40,866 bases of DNA, from positions 1-40,866 of IMG/VR virus record IMGVR_UViG_3300045187_000097. One strand, 5' to 3'. The notes beneath the pieces were generated by a model. It searched no databases. It was not told the DNA's origin and saw nothing but the letters and a program-made list of their open reading frames with translations. Origin of the DNA: a virus (Duplodnaviria; Caudoviricetes). Position 1 is the first letter of the stretch. Each line of letters begins with the position of its first letter. This document shows, piece by piece, positions 22,744 to 36,220 of the stretch. The translations under genes and the position numbers were made by a program.

Positions 22744-23187
22744 ATGATTTCTTATTCATTGTTGACTTCATCAGATGTTGATGAATGTGCTGAACTATAT
22801 ATATTAACTTACAAAGAAAAGCCATGGTCAGAAGAGTGGGATTCTAGCCAACCGATAAAAACCTTTATTCGAACACATCTTCAAAATAATTTTTTCAAAG
22901 GTTTTATTATGAAAATTAATGAACAAATAATAGGTGTTTGTATTGGTTTCCAAAAGCCTTGGCCAATGGGAATAGAATATTATATTGATGAATTTTTTAT
23001 CCATCCTGCTTTTCAAGGAAAAGGTTTTGGCAAGAAATTCATGACTGAAATCGAAAAATATTGTCTAAATGATGGATTAAATGCAATATTACTTAATACA
23101 CAAAAAGGTTATAAATCAGAGACTTTTTATAAAAATAATGGTTTCAGTGAACATAATGGACTGATAATATTATCGAAAGATTTATAA
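22744..23187 (+). CDS. GNAT family N-acetyltransferase
   Basis: EPWSEEW, YYIDEFFIHPAFQGKGFGKKF (acetyl-CoA motif A), FYKNNGF. Confidence 0.9.
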   Translation: MISYSLLTSSDVDECAELYILTYKEKPWSEEWDSSQPIKTFIRTHLQNNFFKGFIMKINEQIIGVCIGFQKPWPMGIEYYIDEFFIHPAFQGKGFGKKFMTEIEKYCLNDGLNAILLNTQKGYKSETFYKNNGFSEHNGLIILSKDL

Positions 23188-25542: not shown

Positions 25543-25752
25543 TTAGACCAACGTTATACCACTTGCTTGTGGTCCTTTTTTTCCCTCAGTAATCGTAAAT
25601 TGTACACGTTGACCTTCTAATAAAACTCGAAAGCCGTCAGCTTGGATTTCACTAAAATGAGCGAATACATCTGAACCATTATCTACAGCAGTAAAACCAA
25701 AACCTTTAGTTTCATTAAACCATTTAACAGTACCAGTTGATAAATTTGACAT
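25543..25752 (-). CDS. csp: Cold-shock domain protein (CspA family)
   Basis: [14 protein letters not shown] (RNP1), DVFAHFS (RNP2), GKKGPQA. Confidence 0.95.
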
Positions 25753-26378: not shown

Positions 26379-27641
26379 ATGTCTGATTTACAACTTTCTT
26401 TGAGTGAATACTTATCTACAGTTCAAGAGGTTATACGTGTAGCTTTTGAAGAATCTGTTTGGGTTAAAGCTGAAATTAGAAACCTAAGTATCAAAGGTGG
26501 TCATTACTATTTAGAATTAGCTGAAAAAGAAGAAGACACAGATAAAATTATTGCAAGTTGTAAGGCAACAATTTGGAAATTCAGTGCTGCAAAAATAGTT
26601 CTGAAATTCGAACGTGAAAGCGGTATAGAATTATCTAGAGATTTAAATGTTTTAATCAAAGTTAAAGCTGTATTTAGCCCTCAATATGGCTTTTCAGTAA
26701 ATATTGAAGCGATTGATTCTAGTTATACGCTTGGTGATATTGCACGGCGGTATCAACAAATTTTAGAAAGATTAACTGCTGAAGGATTAGTTCACAAAAA
26801 TAAATCAATTCCAACCCCTTTTGATATTCAAAATGTCCTGGTAATCGCTCCTGAAAATGCTGCCGGTTTAGGTGATTTCAAGAAAGATGCTGATGCACTT
26901 CAAAAAGCCGGTGTGTGCAATTTTGTATACCACTCTGCCACATTTCAAGGAAACACCGCACCATTAAGTATTGCTGAATCACTGTCGAATGCTTTACGGC
27001 AATGGGCTAAAGCATTTAGTTCTCCCCCGGATCTAATTGTAATTATTCGAGGTGGTGGTGCAATTAATGATCTTGCATATCTGAATGACTATGATTTAGC
27101 GGCCCTACTCTGTAAACGTTCAGTCCCTATCTGGGTCGGTATTGGCCATGAAAAAGATCGGACCATTTTAGATGAAGTAGCTCATCGTTCCTTCGATACT
27201 CCAAGTAAAGTCATTGGAGGAATTCGAAATTTAATCGTGGATCAAGTACAAGACGTAATAGATTCTCTAAATAAGATTAAACTTTTATCACAACATCAGA
27301 TATCAGCTTACCAAAGCCAAAATGATCAATATATTAAAGTGATCAAAACACTGGCACATGGGCAAATTAATGACGCTAATAAGAACTTAGATTTGATGAA
27401 AAGTACGATTCAATATTTAGCCCAACAACAACTTAAATTGGCCTCCACGCAAATTGATGGTTTACTTCGAGAAACTCTATTGCAAAATCCAAAAAATGTT
27501 ATGGCTAAAGGCTATGGTATTGTGAGAAGCAATGGACAAGCAATTCGATCTATTCAACAAATTTCAAACGATAGCATCCAAGTTGAATTACAAGACGGTT
27601 CTATTGATGCAAAAGTAATAAAGGTGCACAGTAATGACTAA
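26379..27641 (+). CDS. xseA: Exodeoxyribonuclease VII large subunit
   Basis: OB-fold VWVKAEIRNL..GGHYYLEL; DLIVIIRGGG, GIGHEKD, TPS; C-terminal P..VMAKGY. Confidence 0.93.
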   Translation: MSDLQLSLSEYLSTVQEVIRVAFEESVWVKAEIRNLSIKGGHYYLELAEKEEDTDKIIASCKATIWKFSAAKIVLKFERESGIELSRDLNVLIKVKAVFSPQYGFSVNIEAIDSSYTLGDIARRYQQILERLTAEGLVHKNKSIPTPFDIQNVLVIAPENAAGLGDFKKDADALQKAGVCNFVYHSATFQGNTAPLSIAESLSNALRQWAKAFSSPPDLIVIIRGGGAINDLAYLNDYDLAALLCKRSVPIWVGIGHEKDRTILDEVAHRSFDTPSKVIGGIRNLIVDQVQDVIDSLNKIKLLSQHQISAYQSQNDQYIKVIKTLAHGQINDANKNLDLMKSTIQYLAQQQLKLASTQIDGLLRETLLQNPKNVMAKGYGIVRSNGQAIRSIQQISNDSIQVELQDGSIDAKVIKVHSND

Positions 27642-27831
27642 AAAAGAATTAACCTTCAAAGAAGGCTATGAAGTTCTCAAGAAAAATGCAGAACTATTAG
27701 AATCTCAAGAAGAACCTGATATCGATAATTTAATGAAAATTGTTGAAGAGTCTATGTCAGCTTACAAAGCCTGTAAATCACGAGTGGATGCGGTTCAACA
27801 GGCATTGAATGAGACTTTTAAAAATGAATAA
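27634..27831 (+). CDS. xseB: Exodeoxyribonuclease VII small subunit
   Basis: LTFKEGYEVL...LE...CKSRV helical hairpin; overlaps the xseA stop. Confidence 0.85.
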   Translation: MTKKELTFKEGYEVLKKNAELLESQEEPDIDNLMKIVEESMSAYKACKSRVDAVQQALNETFKNE

Positions 27832-31156: not shown

Positions 31157-31407
31157 ATGTCTAAAATTTGATTTGGCTCAATTCGATCAGGATTCCCAAC
31201 CAGTCCCAAGCTTTCCCTTTTCTTCCTATTTTTATTCGCTCTTTCAAGCATTAAGCTAACTTCATGGAATTCACCCATGATTGCTTTTTCTAATAGGATC
31301 ACCGCTTGATGTGCATAGTCTTTTCCCCTTACGTCTGCTACCAGTCGCAATCGCTCCATCATGTCAGGGAGCATCTTCAAACGAAGATCTTCTTTTTCGA
31401 GGCTCAT
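31144..31407 (-). CDS. CII-position regulator (ribbon-helix-helix-like)
   Basis: Directly downstream of cro; DLRLKMLPDMMERLRLVAD. Confidence 0.6.
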   Translation of the reverse strand: MSLEKEDLRLKMLPDMMERLRLVADVRGKDYAHQAVILLEKAIMGEFHEVSLMLERANKNRKKRESLGLVGNPDRIEPNQILDIKKA

Positions 31408-31459
31408 TTTTCTCTCTATGTAAATTAATTAAAAATAGAAATCTTATCTTTAAGATTAT

Positions 31460-31678
31460 TTATTGATTGCTAGGATATAACTGAAAGTGATGATGAATCT
31501 CAGCTTCTGAAACCTCCCCCTTACTAGCATCTGCCAAGGCTTTGCGCAGGTTTCTTCGCGGTTCTTTATATCCATAGAACAAATGTGTCTTAATATAACC
31601 AACTGTAGTTCCGGCATCTTTTGCATATTTTTCTAAACTTGCTGGATTTTGTTTGAGAATGAAATCTCTAAAATTCAT
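31460..31678 (-). CDS. cro: Cro-like repressor
   Basis: YAKDAGTTVGYI HTH; divergent from cI. Confidence 0.8.
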   Translation of the reverse strand: MNFRDFILKQNPASLEKYAKDAGTTVGYIKTHLFYGYKEPRRNLRKALADASKGEVSEAEIHHHFQLYPSNQ

Positions 31679-31706
31679 AAATTAATCCTCACGTATTAAT
31701 TTAAAT

Positions 31707-31762
31707 ATTACCTTTTAGGTAATGCAAATACAACCTTTTTTCTTGTTTACCTTTTTGGTGAT
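31707..31762. promoter_or_regulatory. Right operator OR with PR
   Basis: 17-bp sites ATTACCTTTTAGGTAAT (31707-31723) and TTTACCTTTTTGGTGAT (31746-31762); minus-strand -35 TTGCAT at 31727-31722. Confidence 0.75.
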
Positions 31763-31810
31763 GAAACTACAATTAACAAATGTGATATGTCACAATAGAT
31801 TCGGAATATT

Positions 31811-32476
31811 ATGGACAGCAAATCAATTAGATATCAGAACACTCGCCTGCTCGTTGAACAGGTAGGTGGTGTATCCAGTTTTGCTGATAAAATTGGAAAA
31901 GGACAATCTCAAACAAGCCAATTTGCAGGCACAAATCCCATCAAAGGTATTGGAAATAAAGTAGCTCGTGAAATTGAAGATGCTTTTGATAAGCCTCATG
32001 GTTGGTTGGATCATCTTCATGATGAAAAACTAACATCGAAAAATGTGAATGTTTCTGAACCGATACCACTAGTAGGTAAGTTAATTCCAGTAATTTCATG
32101 GATTCAAGCTGGTGCTTGGACTACTGTTGAAGCTGTACCTGCAGGTACACAGTTTGAAGAGTGGTTACCGCCAAATCCCAAATGCGGAAAACATGGTTAC
32201 GGATTATTAGTATCTGGTGAATCTATGCTTCCAGACTTTCGCCCTGGCGATAAAATATATGTAAATCCTGACTTTCAAATAAATGATTTAAAAACAGGTG
32301 ATTTAGTTATTGTCGCTTGCGATGATGAAACAGAGGCTACTTTCAAAAAACTAATAGTAGAAAGTAATGGTATGTATTTAGAACCTTTAAATCCAAAATG
32401 GCTTGAGAAAATCATGGAGCTTCGTGAAGGTTGTAAATTGGTTGGAAAAGTTGTTGGACTTTATAGAGACGTTTAA
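31811..32476 (+). CDS. cI: CI repressor (HTH + S24 autopeptidase)
   Basis: N-terminal HTH; Ala-Gly cleavage site IQAG; catalytic GESM and TFKKL. Confidence 0.93.
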   Translation: MDSKSIRYQNTRLLVEQVGGVSSFADKIGKGQSQTSQFAGTNPIKGIGNKVAREIEDAFDKPHGWLDHLHDEKLTSKNVNVSEPIPLVGKLIPVISWIQAGAWTTVEAVPAGTQFEEWLPPNPKCGKHGYGLLVSGESMLPDFRPGDKIYVNPDFQINDLKTGDLVIVACDDETEATFKKLIVESNGMYLEPLNPKWLEKIMELREGCKLVGKVVGLYRDV

Positions 32477-32495
32477 TTAAAAAGGGGATTTCGCA

Positions 32496-32684
32496 ATGGA
32501 TTTTTTACATCAACATTTTTCAGAAATTTTATCATTTATTGGTGGAATATTTGCTGGTGGTATTGGTGGTATAAGTTTTACCAAATATTTCAACAAAGTT
32601 GATAATTCACAAAAAGTAAGTCAAAAAAATATTAATGCTGGTGGCGATGTTGCTGGTGGTAATATAGATAAATCGATAAGATAA
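32496..32684 (+). CDS. Small membrane protein with glycine zipper and C-terminal repeat motif; putative defence effector
   Basis: AAGGGG RBS; ILSFIGGIFAGGIGGISF hydrophobic helix; tail SQKNINAGGDVAGGNIDKS shared with the next gene. Confidence 0.75.
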   Translation: MDFLHQHFSEILSFIGGIFAGGIGGISFTKYFNKVDNSQKVSQKNINAGGDVAGGNIDKSIR

Positions 32685-32747
32685 AATGACTTCTCAAAAA
32701 AATATTGAAGCTGGTGGCGATGTTGCTGGTGGTAATATAGATAAATC
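32621..32747 (+). repeat. 54-bp direct repeat (32621-32674 / 32694-32747), 52/54 identical
   Basis: tcaaaaaaatatt[aat/gaa]gctggtggcgatgttgctggtggtaatatagataaatc; offset 73 nt. Confidence 0.95.
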
Positions 32748-33264
32748 ACAAAAAACTTATAATATCAACTTGTCAGGGAATGGAAGCGTTTCTCTACTTC
32801 AACCCTTTTTAGATATAATTGAAAAATTAGAAAAAGGGCAAAAAATTGATATTGAAGATGAATTAGATGATATTGAGCATTTTTCTCAACATCATCGCAC
32901 AGATACCAGAGGTCTTGTCCAGAAATTAAAAGATTCTGGTAGAGAATATATGATTGACGAAGCTGTACGATACAAAATGAAAGCTTCTAGATTTATTTTA
33001 CGTAATCAAGATAAACCAGCGTTACAGTATTTAATCGCTAGAATCCTAAGTAGGATAAAAATTACTTATGATTCATTGGTTGTACCACTTATACAAGCAG
33101 ATGCTTCAGTTCAAGTAATTGAAGAAATAATTTTCAAAGAAGTAATTACTCCTATACAAAATACTCTAATTGGGACACCATTATCTTCAAATGATGATTG
33201 TGTAATTCACCTAATGTATTTTTTAGCTGGTAATTGCCATATTTGTTGGGATAAGAAATGCTAA
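32686..33264 (+). CDS. LmuA-like / ABC-three-component C-terminal domain protein without an enzymatic effector
   Basis: GLVQKLKDSGR and C-terminal LMYFLAGNCHICW resemble ABC-3C CTDs; first of a CTD-MC-ATPase trio. Confidence 0.7.
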   Translation: MTSQKNIEAGGDVAGGNIDKSQKTYNINLSGNGSVSLLQPFLDIIEKLEKGQKIDIEDELDDIEHFSQHHRTDTRGLVQKLKDSGREYMIDEAVRYKMKASRFILRNQDKPALQYLIARILSRIKITYDSLVVPLIQADASVQVIEEIIFKEVITPIQNTLIGTPLSSNDDCVIHLMYFLAGNCHICWDKKC

Positions 33265-33758
33265 TTTATCACCCAGCTTTTGATTCAAGTAACTGTTGCT
33301 ATAGATTAATAACACTTTTTAAGAATCTTTCTTCTAATACTATACTAGAAAAAGATAGATTGAAAATAATTGATTTTTATGTTGTTTTCCCAAAAAAACT
33401 CAGCGCAACTAGAGTTCCAAATGAATTTAGAAAGCTTAAATCTGAATTAAAAAAAATTGATGATACATATAGACCGTGTAGTAACCCATTTTTTATGGCA
33501 AAAAAAATTGGAGGAATTCAAGAACAAGTATTAAATAAACTTGTTAGTAATAAAATTTTGAATTTTGATACGAAGTCGGACTCTTATAGTAGAGGTGAAA
33601 ATTTTTCTAAATTTGCTATTGAAGGAACTTTAAGCCCATTACTTTCTAAAGAAATTGAAAAAATTTTTCTTGAATATCTAACGACTTATCCATTAATGGG
33701 TAAAGATGGTATTAAACACAGAACTCTTTTGATGGAGTATAGATATGACAACATATAA
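33258..33758 (+). CDS. LmuC-like / ABC-three-component middle component
   Basis: MLIYHPAFD..C.YR N-terminus, IIDFY..FP, G.DGIK.RT.LMEYRYD C-terminus. Confidence 0.75.
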   Translation: MLIYHPAFDSSNCCYRLITLFKNLSSNTILEKDRLKIIDFYVVFPKKLSATRVPNEFRKLKSELKKIDDTYRPCSNPFFMAKKIGGIQEQVLNKLVSNKILNFDTKSDSYSRGENFSKFAIEGTLSPLLSKEIEKIFLEYLTTYPLMGKDGIKHRTLLMEYRYDNI

Positions 33759-35637
33759 TACATTTACGATTAATAATTTAACTGGCTTAAAATCTAATAA
33801 AATAGTTATTAACCTTGATCTTAATGATGGTTTAAATGTCATTTATGGTAATAATAGTGTCGGAAAATCAACAATATTAGATTTATTAGCTTATTCACTT
33901 GGTGCTGAAAATATTAATTTTAAACCTGCTGCTTTGGCTTGTGACTTCATATTTTCTGAAGTCAAAATTCAAGAATCAATAATTACTGTTAAGAGGGAAA
34001 TTAAAAACTCTAGAGCTCCTCTTTTAATTTTTTTTGGTAGTGTTAAGGAATCTCTAAAATCACCAGAGAATGAATGGCTGAAACTGCCTTATAACTCTAC
34101 AGAAGAAAAAGCAGGTTTCTCTAAATTTTTTTTAGACTATTTAAATTACCCTTCAACTGTTTCTACTGAATCAAGTATTACTACTCATCAAATTTTACGA
34201 CTATTATATGCAGAACAAAAAAATAATTATTTACCGATTTATAGAGAAGATCCTTGGGATAACTCTGAGAAAAGAACCGCAATTAGGGATTATATACTAG
34301 GTATATTTAGTGGTGAATTATATGAGTTACAATTAGAGCGTAGAAGAACTGATAAAGAATTAGTTTCTACTATTAATCGCATTCAATCCTTTTTCCAAAT
34401 TATTGGTAGAACCTCTGAACACTTAATTGAAGAATTTTTAATTTCTGAAAAGTTTGACTTAGAAAAACGAAAAAATGAAATACTTGAAAAAATATATAAT
34501 TTGAACAGAGAGATTACTACAATAAATGCATCTAATAATCAGACTGATGAACAAACTAAAGTAAAAAATGAACTAAGTGCACTTAACAAAGGAGCGCTTT
34601 CAATTGAAGATAAGTTAAATGATATAAAATATGAAAATACGGATTTAGATAAATTTAAGGCTGAGTTGAATGTTAGACTTATCGATATAGATCATGCAAT
34701 TAGTTCTAATTTAATAATAAATGATATAGATTTTGAGTTTTGCCCTTGTTGTCATGAAAAAATAATAAAATCCACAAATATTAATACATGTAATCTGTGT
34801 AAAAGTCCTACTGGATCCTTGAATAACAATATAAATTTACTACAAATGAAAACTGAATTGAATTTTCAAATTCAAGAGATTGAAAAAATTATAAAAGATA
34901 ATATTAGTAATTATAATGGTTTAAATAACGAATACATTGTTATTAAAAAAAACTTAAATAAGAAAGAGCAAGAGCTTAAGCTACTAACATCAAGATGGCA
35001 TACTGATTTTGAAATTGAGAGTATAAAAGCATATAAAGAACTTGGCGAAATTGAAACTGAAATTTCTAGTATCTCTTCTAAATTAGAAATAGCCCAAGAA
35101 GTAAAGAAACTACAAACTCTTCGAGATAACCTTCAAAAAAATCTCAACAGTATTAATGATAAAATAAAAATATTACAAGATCATTCTAAAAAAGAATTGT
35201 ATCGTTTGTTAGATAAATTAAACAAAACGCTTAAATATTTATTATCTCTAGATACTGGATTACAAACAGAATTTATGGATCCAGATAATCATATTTCCAT
35301 AATATTTGAAGATAACAATATAACAGTTAATGGCACCAGTCATTTTTCCCAAAGTTCATCTATCTTACTAAAGCATCTCTTTCATTTAGCTTTAATATTA
35401 GTTGCTAATGATGAAACATCTATGCGTTTACCTAAGTTTTTAATATTAGATGGTATTAATGATGGAGGATTAGAACAATCTCGTGCTGAAAATTTACAGG
35501 CCATTATTGTTAAGGTATCTCAAATGATGAAACCACCTTTTCAAATAATTTGTGCCACCTCCGAAATTTATAATCCTATGAAACCATTTATTACTAAACA
35601 ATATCTTAATGGAGAAAAATCTCTAGACTTAAGATAA
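33745..35637 (+). CDS. LmuB-like SMC/Rad50-type ABC ATPase
   Basis: Walker A GNNSVGKST, YAEQ Q-loop, coiled coils around CPCC/CNLC hook, FSQSS signature, Walker B FLILDG.NDGG. Confidence 0.85.
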   Translation: MTTYNTFTINNLTGLKSNKIVINLDLNDGLNVIYGNNSVGKSTILDLLAYSLGAENINFKPAALACDFIFSEVKIQESIITVKREIKNSRAPLLIFFGSVKESLKSPENEWLKLPYNSTEEKAGFSKFFLDYLNYPSTVSTESSITTHQILRLLYAEQKNNYLPIYREDPWDNSEKRTAIRDYILGIFSGELYELQLERRRTDKELVSTINRIQSFFQIIGRTSEHLIEEFLISEKFDLEKRKNEILEKIYNLNREITTINASNNQTDEQTKVKNELSALNKGALSIEDKLNDIKYENTDLDKFKAELNVRLIDIDHAISSNLIINDIDFEFCPCCHEKIIKSTNINTCNLCKSPTGSLNNNINLLQMKTELNFQIQEIEKIIKDNISNYNGLNNEYIVIKKNLNKKEQELKLLTSRWHTDFEIESIKAYKELGEIETEISSISSKLEIAQEVKKLQTLRDNLQKNLNSINDKIKILQDHSKKELYRLLDKLNKTLKYLLSLDTGLQTEFMDPDNHISIIFEDNNITVNGTSHFSQSSSILLKHLFHLALILVANDETSMRLPKFLILDGINDGGLEQSRAENLQAIIVKVSQMMKPPFQIICATSEIYNPMKPFITKQYLNGEKSLDLR

Positions 35638-35680
35638 AAGGTAATTTTTTCTTGCATTAAATTACCTTTTTGGTAATACT
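35636..35680 (+). promoter_or_regulatory. Left operator OL with PL
   Basis: ATTACCTTTTTGGTAAT (35661-35677) between TTGCAT (35652-35657) and AATACT; half-site AAAAGGTAAT at 35636-35645. Confidence 0.75.
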
Positions 35681-35697
35681 TATCTCACAAACAAAGA

Positions 35698-35734
35698 AAA
35701 AGCACATCGCTCTCTTACCTTCGATGTGCCTTTT
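35698..35734 (+). promoter_or_regulatory. Leader hairpin after PL (attenuator/terminator-like)
   Basis: gcacatcg-ctctcttacctt-cgatgtgc followed by ctttt. Confidence 0.45.
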
Positions 35735-35752
35735 ACAACTTGCGAGATAAGT

Positions 35753-36220
35753 ATGAACACAAAACCAAATTCAATCAATCCCATTGTTACACATCGTGTA
35801 CAGCCTTTTAGCTTCTTTAAAATCGCCACTGTTAGTGGACTATTGACCGCTGGGGCAATCGGTCTTGCTTATGACCAAAAAACGACTGAATACAAGCCAC
35901 CAGTTGCCATCCCAAATGTTACACCCTCTACTTACACTGTTGATGCTTTAAAGCTCACTTCTGGAACTTCGGGCAAAGCGGTTATCAAACTTGATAGCTT
36001 CCTAGTTTTAGTCAGCTTTGATTTTGAATCTCATCCAGATAGTTACGGCGTACCAGGTTCTGAATTTACAGCCGTTGATATTACAAATTTGGCGGTTGAA
36101 CAAATTAAAGATGTGAACGGTAAAGATTGGAATGATTTCACCGATTACAACGATCACAGAAATATCAATCAGATGATTGTTGGTTATATCGAACGTAATC
36201 GATTAGTGGAGGCAAACTAA
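35753..36220 (+). CDS. Hypothetical early protein with an N-terminal hydrophobic segment
   Basis: First gene after PL; start probably at ATG 35753. Confidence 0.7.
   Translation: MNTKPNSINPIVTHRVQPFSFFKIATVSGLLTAGAIGLAYDQKTTEYKPPVAIPNVTPSTYTVDALKLTSGTSGKAVIKLDSFLVLVSFDFESHPDSYGVPGSEFTAVDITNLAVEQIKDVNGKDWNDFTDYNDHRNINQMIVGYIERNRLVEAN

Follow-up and report, generated by a model that had tools for sequence, protein, structure and literature searches.

A short Lamassu variant in a Caudoviricetes genome in which an enzyme-less LmuA and a separate, probably membrane-inserted peptide share a putative signalling motif

In the solved Lamassu systems, LmuA is held as a monomer, is released upon sensing of DNA ends and oligomerises via its C-terminal domain (CTD; PMC12663957; 10.1101/2025.06.23.660979), and a further preprint predicts dimers and larger rings for members of the CTD9 type (10.1101/2025.03.14.643221). 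One published group, Clade O (Haudiquet et al. 2025, PMC12663957), comprises > 100 sequences in which the LmuA effector was seemingly lost while LmuC and LmuB are intact, a loss for which no explanation is offered. In the amyloid signalling systems Bab/Agp and HET-S/NWD2, the sensor has a motif at its N-terminus by which it converts the matching motif of a partner that targets the membrane. Here, we analyzed a four-gene cassette of the virus record IMGVR_UViG_3300045187_000097 (Duplodnaviria; Caudoviricetes; all 40,866 nucleotides, hereafter the window), in which a short Lamassu/ABC-3C trio with an enzyme-less LmuA is preceded by the gene of a 62-aa peptide that carries the same motif as LmuA. 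This pairing is conserved throughout a large family, and the two motifs very probably form a functional link between the proteins. The cassette has the following features:

32496..32684, + strand: 62-aa peptide composed of a hydrophobic helix, a basic linker and a C-terminal motif, proposed as a separate effector (open reading frame and homologues)
32526..32582, + strand: hydrophobic Gly-rich helix, peptide residues 11-29, predicted N-out/C-in (hydropathy, charge)
32619..32675, + strand: motif copy 1, peptide S42-S60 (identity to copy 2)
32686..33264, + strand: enzyme-less LmuA, 192 aa, N-terminal motif followed by a helical C-terminal domain, CTD9 (Pfam, AlphaFold2 model)
32692..32748, + strand: motif copy 2, LmuA S3-S21 (identity to copy 1)
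32911..33249, + strand: Pfam CTD9 (PF20285), LmuA residues 76-188 (E 8e-29)
33258..33758, + strand: LmuC / ABC-3C middle component 5 (MC5), 166 aa (Pfam MC5, E 2.6e-28; PADLOC LmuC weak, E 0.0027)
33745..35637, + strand: short LmuB, SMC-like ABC ATPase, 630 aa (PADLOC LmuB, E 5e-38)

All four tightly coupled open reading frames (ORFs) listed by an earlier note on this DNA are present (spacing of +1, -7, and -14 nt in the order peptide/LmuA/LmuC/LmuB), and the Lamassu/ABC-3C identity that it had assigned to the last three is confirmed by the CTD9, MC5, and LmuB profiles together with structural matches of the LmuA CTD. An AlphaFold2 model of LmuA (137 sequences; mean predicted local distance difference test (pLDDT) score 89.6, helical from residue 38) was compared with 48,161 solved chains, and the top two matches were the CTDs of solved Lamassu LmuAs, 9HQX_A (Z 9.1, root-mean-square deviation 3.3, 112 aligned) and 9NXX_A (Z 8.3, deviation 3.6, 114 aligned), the next-best structure having a Z of 6.0. 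Foldseek with the same model returned no match at E 0.001, and a sequence search of solved structures with LmuA gave nothing meaningful. LmuB carries a Walker A (GNNSVGKS, K41), two CxxC motifs and a Walker B (LILDG); Walker A was found in 72 of the 77 LmuB frames examined and the two CxxC motifs in all 77. The Walker B of the relatives reads mostly DG or DN, unlike the published short-Lamassu consensus hhhhD[Q/S/T/E], but as lipase-fused CTD9 loci read DN too, this departure is not special to the motif-paired variant. In a quick, unrooted LmuB tree of 77 rows, from which no order of events is read, a single branch separates the nine fused systems from all other rows.

The cassette thus resembles the short (type II) Lamassu of the CTD9-MC5 type in its LmuA-CTD, its LmuC and a LmuB of 630 aa that has Walker A and CxxC, and differs from the lipase-effector members of that type, whose fused enzyme is replaced in the window by an additional gene, the fourth, and by the motif pair. 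In canonical Lamassu, the N-terminal part of LmuA is an enzymatic effector; here it is absent, CTD9 being the sole domain found in the 192 aa, as the earlier note had read it; because no enzyme is fused to LmuA, the cassette is filed as a Lamassu variant, like the published effector-less clade. That note also had the motif running directly into the CTD, and here it was right that no room is left for an enzyme but not that the two are contiguous, as two predicted helices (residues 38-67) intervene ahead of the Pfam domain. LmuA residues 1-20, which include most of the motif, have a pLDDT of ~79 and no assigned secondary structure in the model. The motif-paired family may be Clade O itself, a match made by description; the text of Haudiquet et al. 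(PMC12663957) contains no mention of amyloid or transmembrane. Another source reports an inactive 'Lamassu missing a known effector', labelled LmuBC_SMEK and taken from a P4 satellite (PMC13586616), and it is because of this label and origin that we regard it as probably another subtype, judged by the label and the first bases.

The two motif copies of the window, both found as the earlier note had quoted them, are identical in 18 of 19 residues and form a 54-nt direct repeat at the DNA level (96% identical, 73 nt apart). The family consensus is [VT]xQx[NG]Nx[VA]GGDx[AV]G[RG]D[IK] (G 14%, N 14%, P 0.4%), and the motif glutamine Q4 of LmuA is among the 15 columns conserved in ≥ 90% of the 137-sequence alignment. 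A RHIM/PP/BASS3 label was rejected because the G-phi-Q-phi-G core is missing, and the term 'RHIM-like' used in the earlier note is therefore not supported; by eye, the motif reads more like another published bacterial amyloid-signalling cluster, C01 (those listed sequences ending in AGRD), and some of C06, a C01 example being ..VTQNVKAGRDAYVSGRDMTV.., where we assume from the label that C01 is BASS1. The BASS motifs of Bell/NLR pairs are alike in being Gly/Asn-rich, Pro-poor and 20 residues long, in the pairing of adjacent genes and in the occasional doubling on the effector, and they differ in their NLR NTPase receptors, their Bell/TIR/CHAT effectors and the longer middle of most C01 motifs (10.1101/2020.01.06.895854; PMC8086366). 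Unlike BASS, the motif type of the window occurs together with Lamassu, and unicellular members of the Pseudomonadota and Bacteroidota often carry it. The proposed logic is shared with fungal HET-S/NWD2 and metazoan RHIM, where a receptor oligomer templates a beta-motif and so activates a membrane-damaging partner; these differ from the window in the G-phi-Q-phi-G core and in the HeLo domain, which the cassette does not have.

In order to survey the family, a LmuA profile was built from 15 close relatives, which retrieved 587 clusters at E 0.001, with 146 of the best 150 being ≤ 210 aa long; at E values up to 1e-10 to this profile the family amounts to 482 clusters at 50% identity, fused forms counted in. 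Loci were drawn from viral, genome, and metagenome collections and four plasmids. Candidates from the genome scan (200) and the metagenome scan (446) were sorted by similarity to the window LmuA, and the best 80 of each were retained. From 204 loci (window included), six duplicates and five loci cut by contig ends were removed, so that 181 short LmuAs and 12 long, fused ones remained, and eight short loci with < 260 nt upstream were set aside, which gave 173 evaluable loci. The end of the upstream ORF was scored against the LmuA N-terminus, and loci with a motif score ≥ 30 were considered paired. By this threshold 169 of the 173 short loci are paired (83/85 after removal of near-copies at 70% identity, 43/45 at 50%), bearing out the separate small gene that the earlier note had supposed to be conserved, while none of the 12 long fused LmuAs is (best score 28; hydrolase type confirmed with Pfam in four of the five scanned). 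The partner genes are separated by a median gap of 5 nt, and the motif sits at the C-terminus of the effector and the N-terminus of the receptor in adjacent genes, the same polarity as in amyloid signalling. In three loci (L017, L019, and L050), the LmuA frame is ~40 residues longer ahead of the motif, which puts 120-180 nt between the motif and the partner. MC5 and LmuB follow downstream in 70/70 representatives with enough DNA. The hosts named belong to Pseudomonadota, Bacteroidota, Verrucomicrobiota, Thermodesulfobacteriota, Planctomycetota, Myxococcota, Acidobacteriota, Elusimicrobiota, Armatimonadota, and Bacillota and include a cyanobacterium, a spread over at least ten phyla from which the pairing is judged to be ancient. 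Nothing in the annotated phage set matched LmuA, and five plasmid matches covered only the CTD, the four that were opened being hydrolase-type long LmuAs that were used as controls.

Within loci, the motifs of the two partners vary together. Among 43 representatives with < 50% identity, the motif score averaged 63.5 with the locus' own LmuA partner vs. 35.1 with the partners of other loci, and the own partner ranked first in 22 of the 43 (permutation z 17), while the N-terminal part of the peptide, used as a control, showed little effect (18.8 vs. 16.5). In relatedness-matched disjoint pairs, the own partner outscored the swapped one in 31 of 41 cases (sign p 0.0015), and in 18 of 20 when the matched pairs were distant, so that the within-locus co-variation predicted in the earlier note holds. 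Four loci (L004, L062, L065, and L074) have wholly different motif variants, the same variant being present on both partners. Where the motif residues are identical, the codon is too in 475 of 964 cases (49%), vs. 51% expected from codon usage. With the copies co-varying and synonymous sites saturated, the likeness of the motifs is due to selection at the protein level and not to chance duplication. An accidental origin, by a recent tandem duplication that split a fused helix-motif-CTD gene or by decay of a Lamassu that lost its effector, could draw on the window copies (96% identical in DNA, identical codons in 16 of 18), which together with those of L062 look recently homogenised, and on the existence of one fused form (L043, below). 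With the split form in 169/173 loci of at least ten phyla, synonymous sites saturated and LmuC and LmuB intact, we regard such an accident as extremely improbable, and the recent-duplication artefact is effectively refuted by the split loci and the saturated sites.

The 62-aa peptide has a good ribosome-binding site (AAGGGG) and a hydrophobic stretch with a mean Kyte-Doolittle value of 1.67 (residues 11-29). It matched no family in Pfam, PADLOC or NCBIfam; 40 homologues of 50-92 aa were found, an atlas search led to unnamed small-protein clusters, a reciprocal search starting from the peptide returned only four viral loci, all already in the set, and no longer proteins containing it were found (weak evidence). 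Among 117 peptides compared with Pfam, the only matches were weak and scattered ones to membrane helices. Of the partner peptides, 80/83 are ≤ 100 aa long (median 61 aa) and have a single hydrophobic helix, the sequence of which is poorly conserved. Of the 80 peptides taken as representatives, 77 are more basic behind the helix than ahead of it, and the motif is therefore predicted to be cytoplasmic. We consider it likely that the peptide is the effector. The alternative that its role is confined to anchoring or tuning the Lamassu complex, with killing or DNA restriction coming from LmuABC or a host factor, would suit the predicted single-pass topology with a cytoplasmic motif, the poor conservation of the helix and a locus that has no peptide (L092, below). 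We find this quite unlikely, given that the enzyme-bearing CTD9 LmuAs have neither motif nor peptide (0/12), that no catalytic family besides the ATPase was detected in the LmuA/LmuC/LmuB trio with Pfam or PADLOC, and that in one locus an enzyme occupies the place of the peptide.

This locus (L071:2132-3481, metagenome-assembled genome (MAG) of Riflebacteria) encodes a 450-aa calcineurin-like metallophosphoesterase ahead of a short LmuA, which ends in two motif copies and suggests an enzymatic effector on the same motif plug. The four loci that missed the pairing threshold were re-read: L196 does have a partner that the scoring overlooked, in L032 both motifs are present but LmuA is frameshifted, and the other two are L043 and L092. 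With one fusion and one unpaired locus among the 173, the refuting condition set in the earlier note, homologues that are mostly fused or unpaired, did not hold; L029, counted as paired, has a frameshift in the small gene. In L043 (3360-4046, Polaribacter MAG), the helix, one motif and CTD9 form a single in-frame ORF with the junction within the GGDVAG core, followed by intact LmuC and LmuB matches; it may have arisen by recombination between motif copies or be an assembly collapse. Together, the L043 fusion and the L071 phosphoesterase suggest that the upstream gene fills the effector slot, which appears to behave as modular. The fusion also bears on a guard arrangement, in which the LmuA motif would bind and neutralise a constitutively toxic peptide that DNA sensing then frees. 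Translationally coupled genes, a peptide that has no auto-inhibitory domain and the disengagement of LmuA upon activation in solved systems are compatible with it; the activating species in known Lamassu, however, is the released LmuA oligomer, and an in-frame fusion with intact LmuC and LmuB fits oligomerisation, not release, which makes a guard very unlikely.

The mechanism we favour combines Lamassu biology with amyloid precedent. LmuBC would keep LmuA monomeric, sense foreign DNA ends and free LmuA, which would then oligomerise through its CTD and gather several N-terminal motifs into a seed; the inner-membrane peptide could join this seed by its cytoplasmic motif in an amyloid-like beta-stack, and the clustered helices would leak or depolarise the membrane, aborting the infection. 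We hold it moderately likely that LmuA oligomers nucleate such a stack and thereby cluster the peptide, with membrane damage and abortive infection as the outcome; polymerisation, permeabilisation and phage defence by the cassette are all inferred, and an amyloid behaviour of the motif is suggested by architecture and precedent. Two motif copies are carried by 12 effector-side peptides, and in the best AlphaFold2 model of a double-motif peptide both repeats have an identical four-strand pattern, which is the one structural hint at amyloid polymerisation. This model had no significant match among solved structures (HET-s 2RNM at E 8.7 and 2MUS at E 9.9 among six rows, which is not evidence), and a wide structural search gave helix matches only (Z ≤ 2.5). 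The motifs might instead pair as a few beta-solenoid rungs, a finite adaptor by which the LmuA oligomer would bring a set number of peptides together as a small pore, and no amyloid would propagate itself. Pairing, co-variation and fusion data are accounted for equally well in this way, the CTD9 lipase LmuAs are predicted as closed rings, and the weak structural neighbours of the L071 repeats are bactofilin-type solenoids (TM 0.38-0.40). Open-ended stacking is favoured, though, by motifs that are identical on the two partners and have no capping feature, and the polarity, the double motifs and the sequence likeness to amyloid signalling motifs point the same way, so that we see the finite adaptor as rather unlikely and a templated cross-beta polymer as fairly likely.

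Several observations weigh against polymerisation of the peptide by a co-varying motif. Co-variation is weaker among close relatives, where the own partner won in only 13 of 21 pairs (≥ 55% identity), and a first nearest-neighbour pairing gave 18/27 (p 0.12). As candidates were ranked by likeness to the window protein, the sample leans to motif-bearing forms. Only one of five double-motif models reached a pLDDT of 67.5, the other four staying at 50-53, and GxxxG is present in only 37 of the 80 peptide helices. L092 (542-1162, Prevotella MAG) has a short CTD9 LmuA with an N/Q-rich N-terminus and no adjacent partner, which may be elsewhere or lost. Finally, the peptide has no helical bundle caging the toxic helix as in Bab and HET-S, which leaves a harmless resting state unexplained and is the main gap of the model.

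A close described counterpart in layout is Bab/Agp, an antiphage amyloid system of E. coli (10.1101/2024.11.07.622273). It is alike in its adjacent prophage genes, with the motif at the effector C-terminus and the sensor N-terminus, and its membrane-targeting helix and abortive infection resemble the model proposed here. It differs in its sensor, which is TPR-GreA/B-PIN vs. an SMC DNA sensor in the window, and in its effector, a caged helical domain of ~80 aa vs. one bare helix; more generally, Bell/Babybell/HeLo effectors cage an N-terminal hydrophobic helix in a bundle of ~80-100 aa that the peptides described here do not have. Lamassu is not mentioned in the part of the Bab/Agp paper that was covered (10.1101/2024.11.07.622273), and no description linking Lamassu to amyloid or prion motifs was found in the literature covered, with the ABC-3C classification paper and the preprint supplements, which could mention the small gene, lying outside this coverage. 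Motif-paired Lamassu is a real, conserved and apparently undescribed variant that joins two known kinds of system. We lean slightly towards the broader view of a widespread Lamassu lineage with prion-like signalling, in which an SMC-type DNA-end sensor, via LmuA oligomers, polymerises a one-helix membrane peptide, and the motif is a plug accepting other effectors, e.g., a phosphoesterase. If true, DNA sensing in an immune system would here be amyloid-coupled for the first time, and ordinary unicellular bacteria would add an SMC DNA sensor to the NLR and TGP sensors of amyloid immune signalling; the peptide would be among the smallest amyloid-gated death effectors and would supply the missing effector of the 'effector-less' Clade O, a stated puzzle. 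A clone from which the small gene ahead of LmuA is missing should appear inactive.

The size of the family and the copies of the cassette in E. coli P2-like prophages make the model directly testable. Most of the cassette query is held by 19 of 5,426 complete E. coli genomes, in P2-like prophages, and in one of them (NZ_CP069882.1, 4278530-4281714; L204:6001-9185) the four genes lie between the replication endonuclease (gpA) and the portal gene. This position is a published defence hotspot. The sites are of a defence type, which counts in favour of the model, namely the gpA-portal interval in E. coli and a place next to the repressor in Acinetobacter prophages. The window itself looks like a temperate phage or prophage by its integrase-like gene, repressor, and early genes, and its host is probably Acinetobacter, because the nearest named LmuA relatives (78-84% identity) belong to this genus. 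The cassette has a GC content of 27.5%, compared with ~37% on both flanks, and follows a further gene:

31811..32476, + strand: CI-like repressor (Peptidase S24; Pfam), separated from the start of the peptide gene by 19 nt

In Acinetobacter-type prophages, cassettes that are distantly related and differ in motif variant (L004, L027, L180, and that of the window) each come after a repressor-like gene, which suggests a defence slot behind the repressor. Co-transcription of the cassette with the CI-like repressor gene is likely, as judged from the sequence; no terminator-like sites were found in 31400-35900, and a promoter scan gave fewer sites than shuffled sequence. In three RNA runs, metatranscriptome contigs cover the operon, with cover absent or thin over some flanking phage genes in two of them, although such contigs, chosen together with the window stretch, cannot show transcription. 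The spacer between the motif copies is crossed by a 95-nt contig in one DNA and one RNA assembly, where the DNA run may be the source of the window. One RNA-run contig omits the 73 nt between the repeats (window 32636-32710), which would create an in-frame fusion as in L043; this is most likely an assembly collapse of a 38-nt exact repeat, the other three runs having no such omission.

Elsewhere in the window, the large subunit of exonuclease VII was identified with Pfam (26379-27641, +), followed by a 65-aa gene (27634-27831, +) that, by resemblance, may encode the small subunit. An AT-rich cargo stretch holds what are presumably, by their motifs, a cold-shock-like protein (25543-25752, -) and a GNAT-like acetyltransferase (22744-23187, +).

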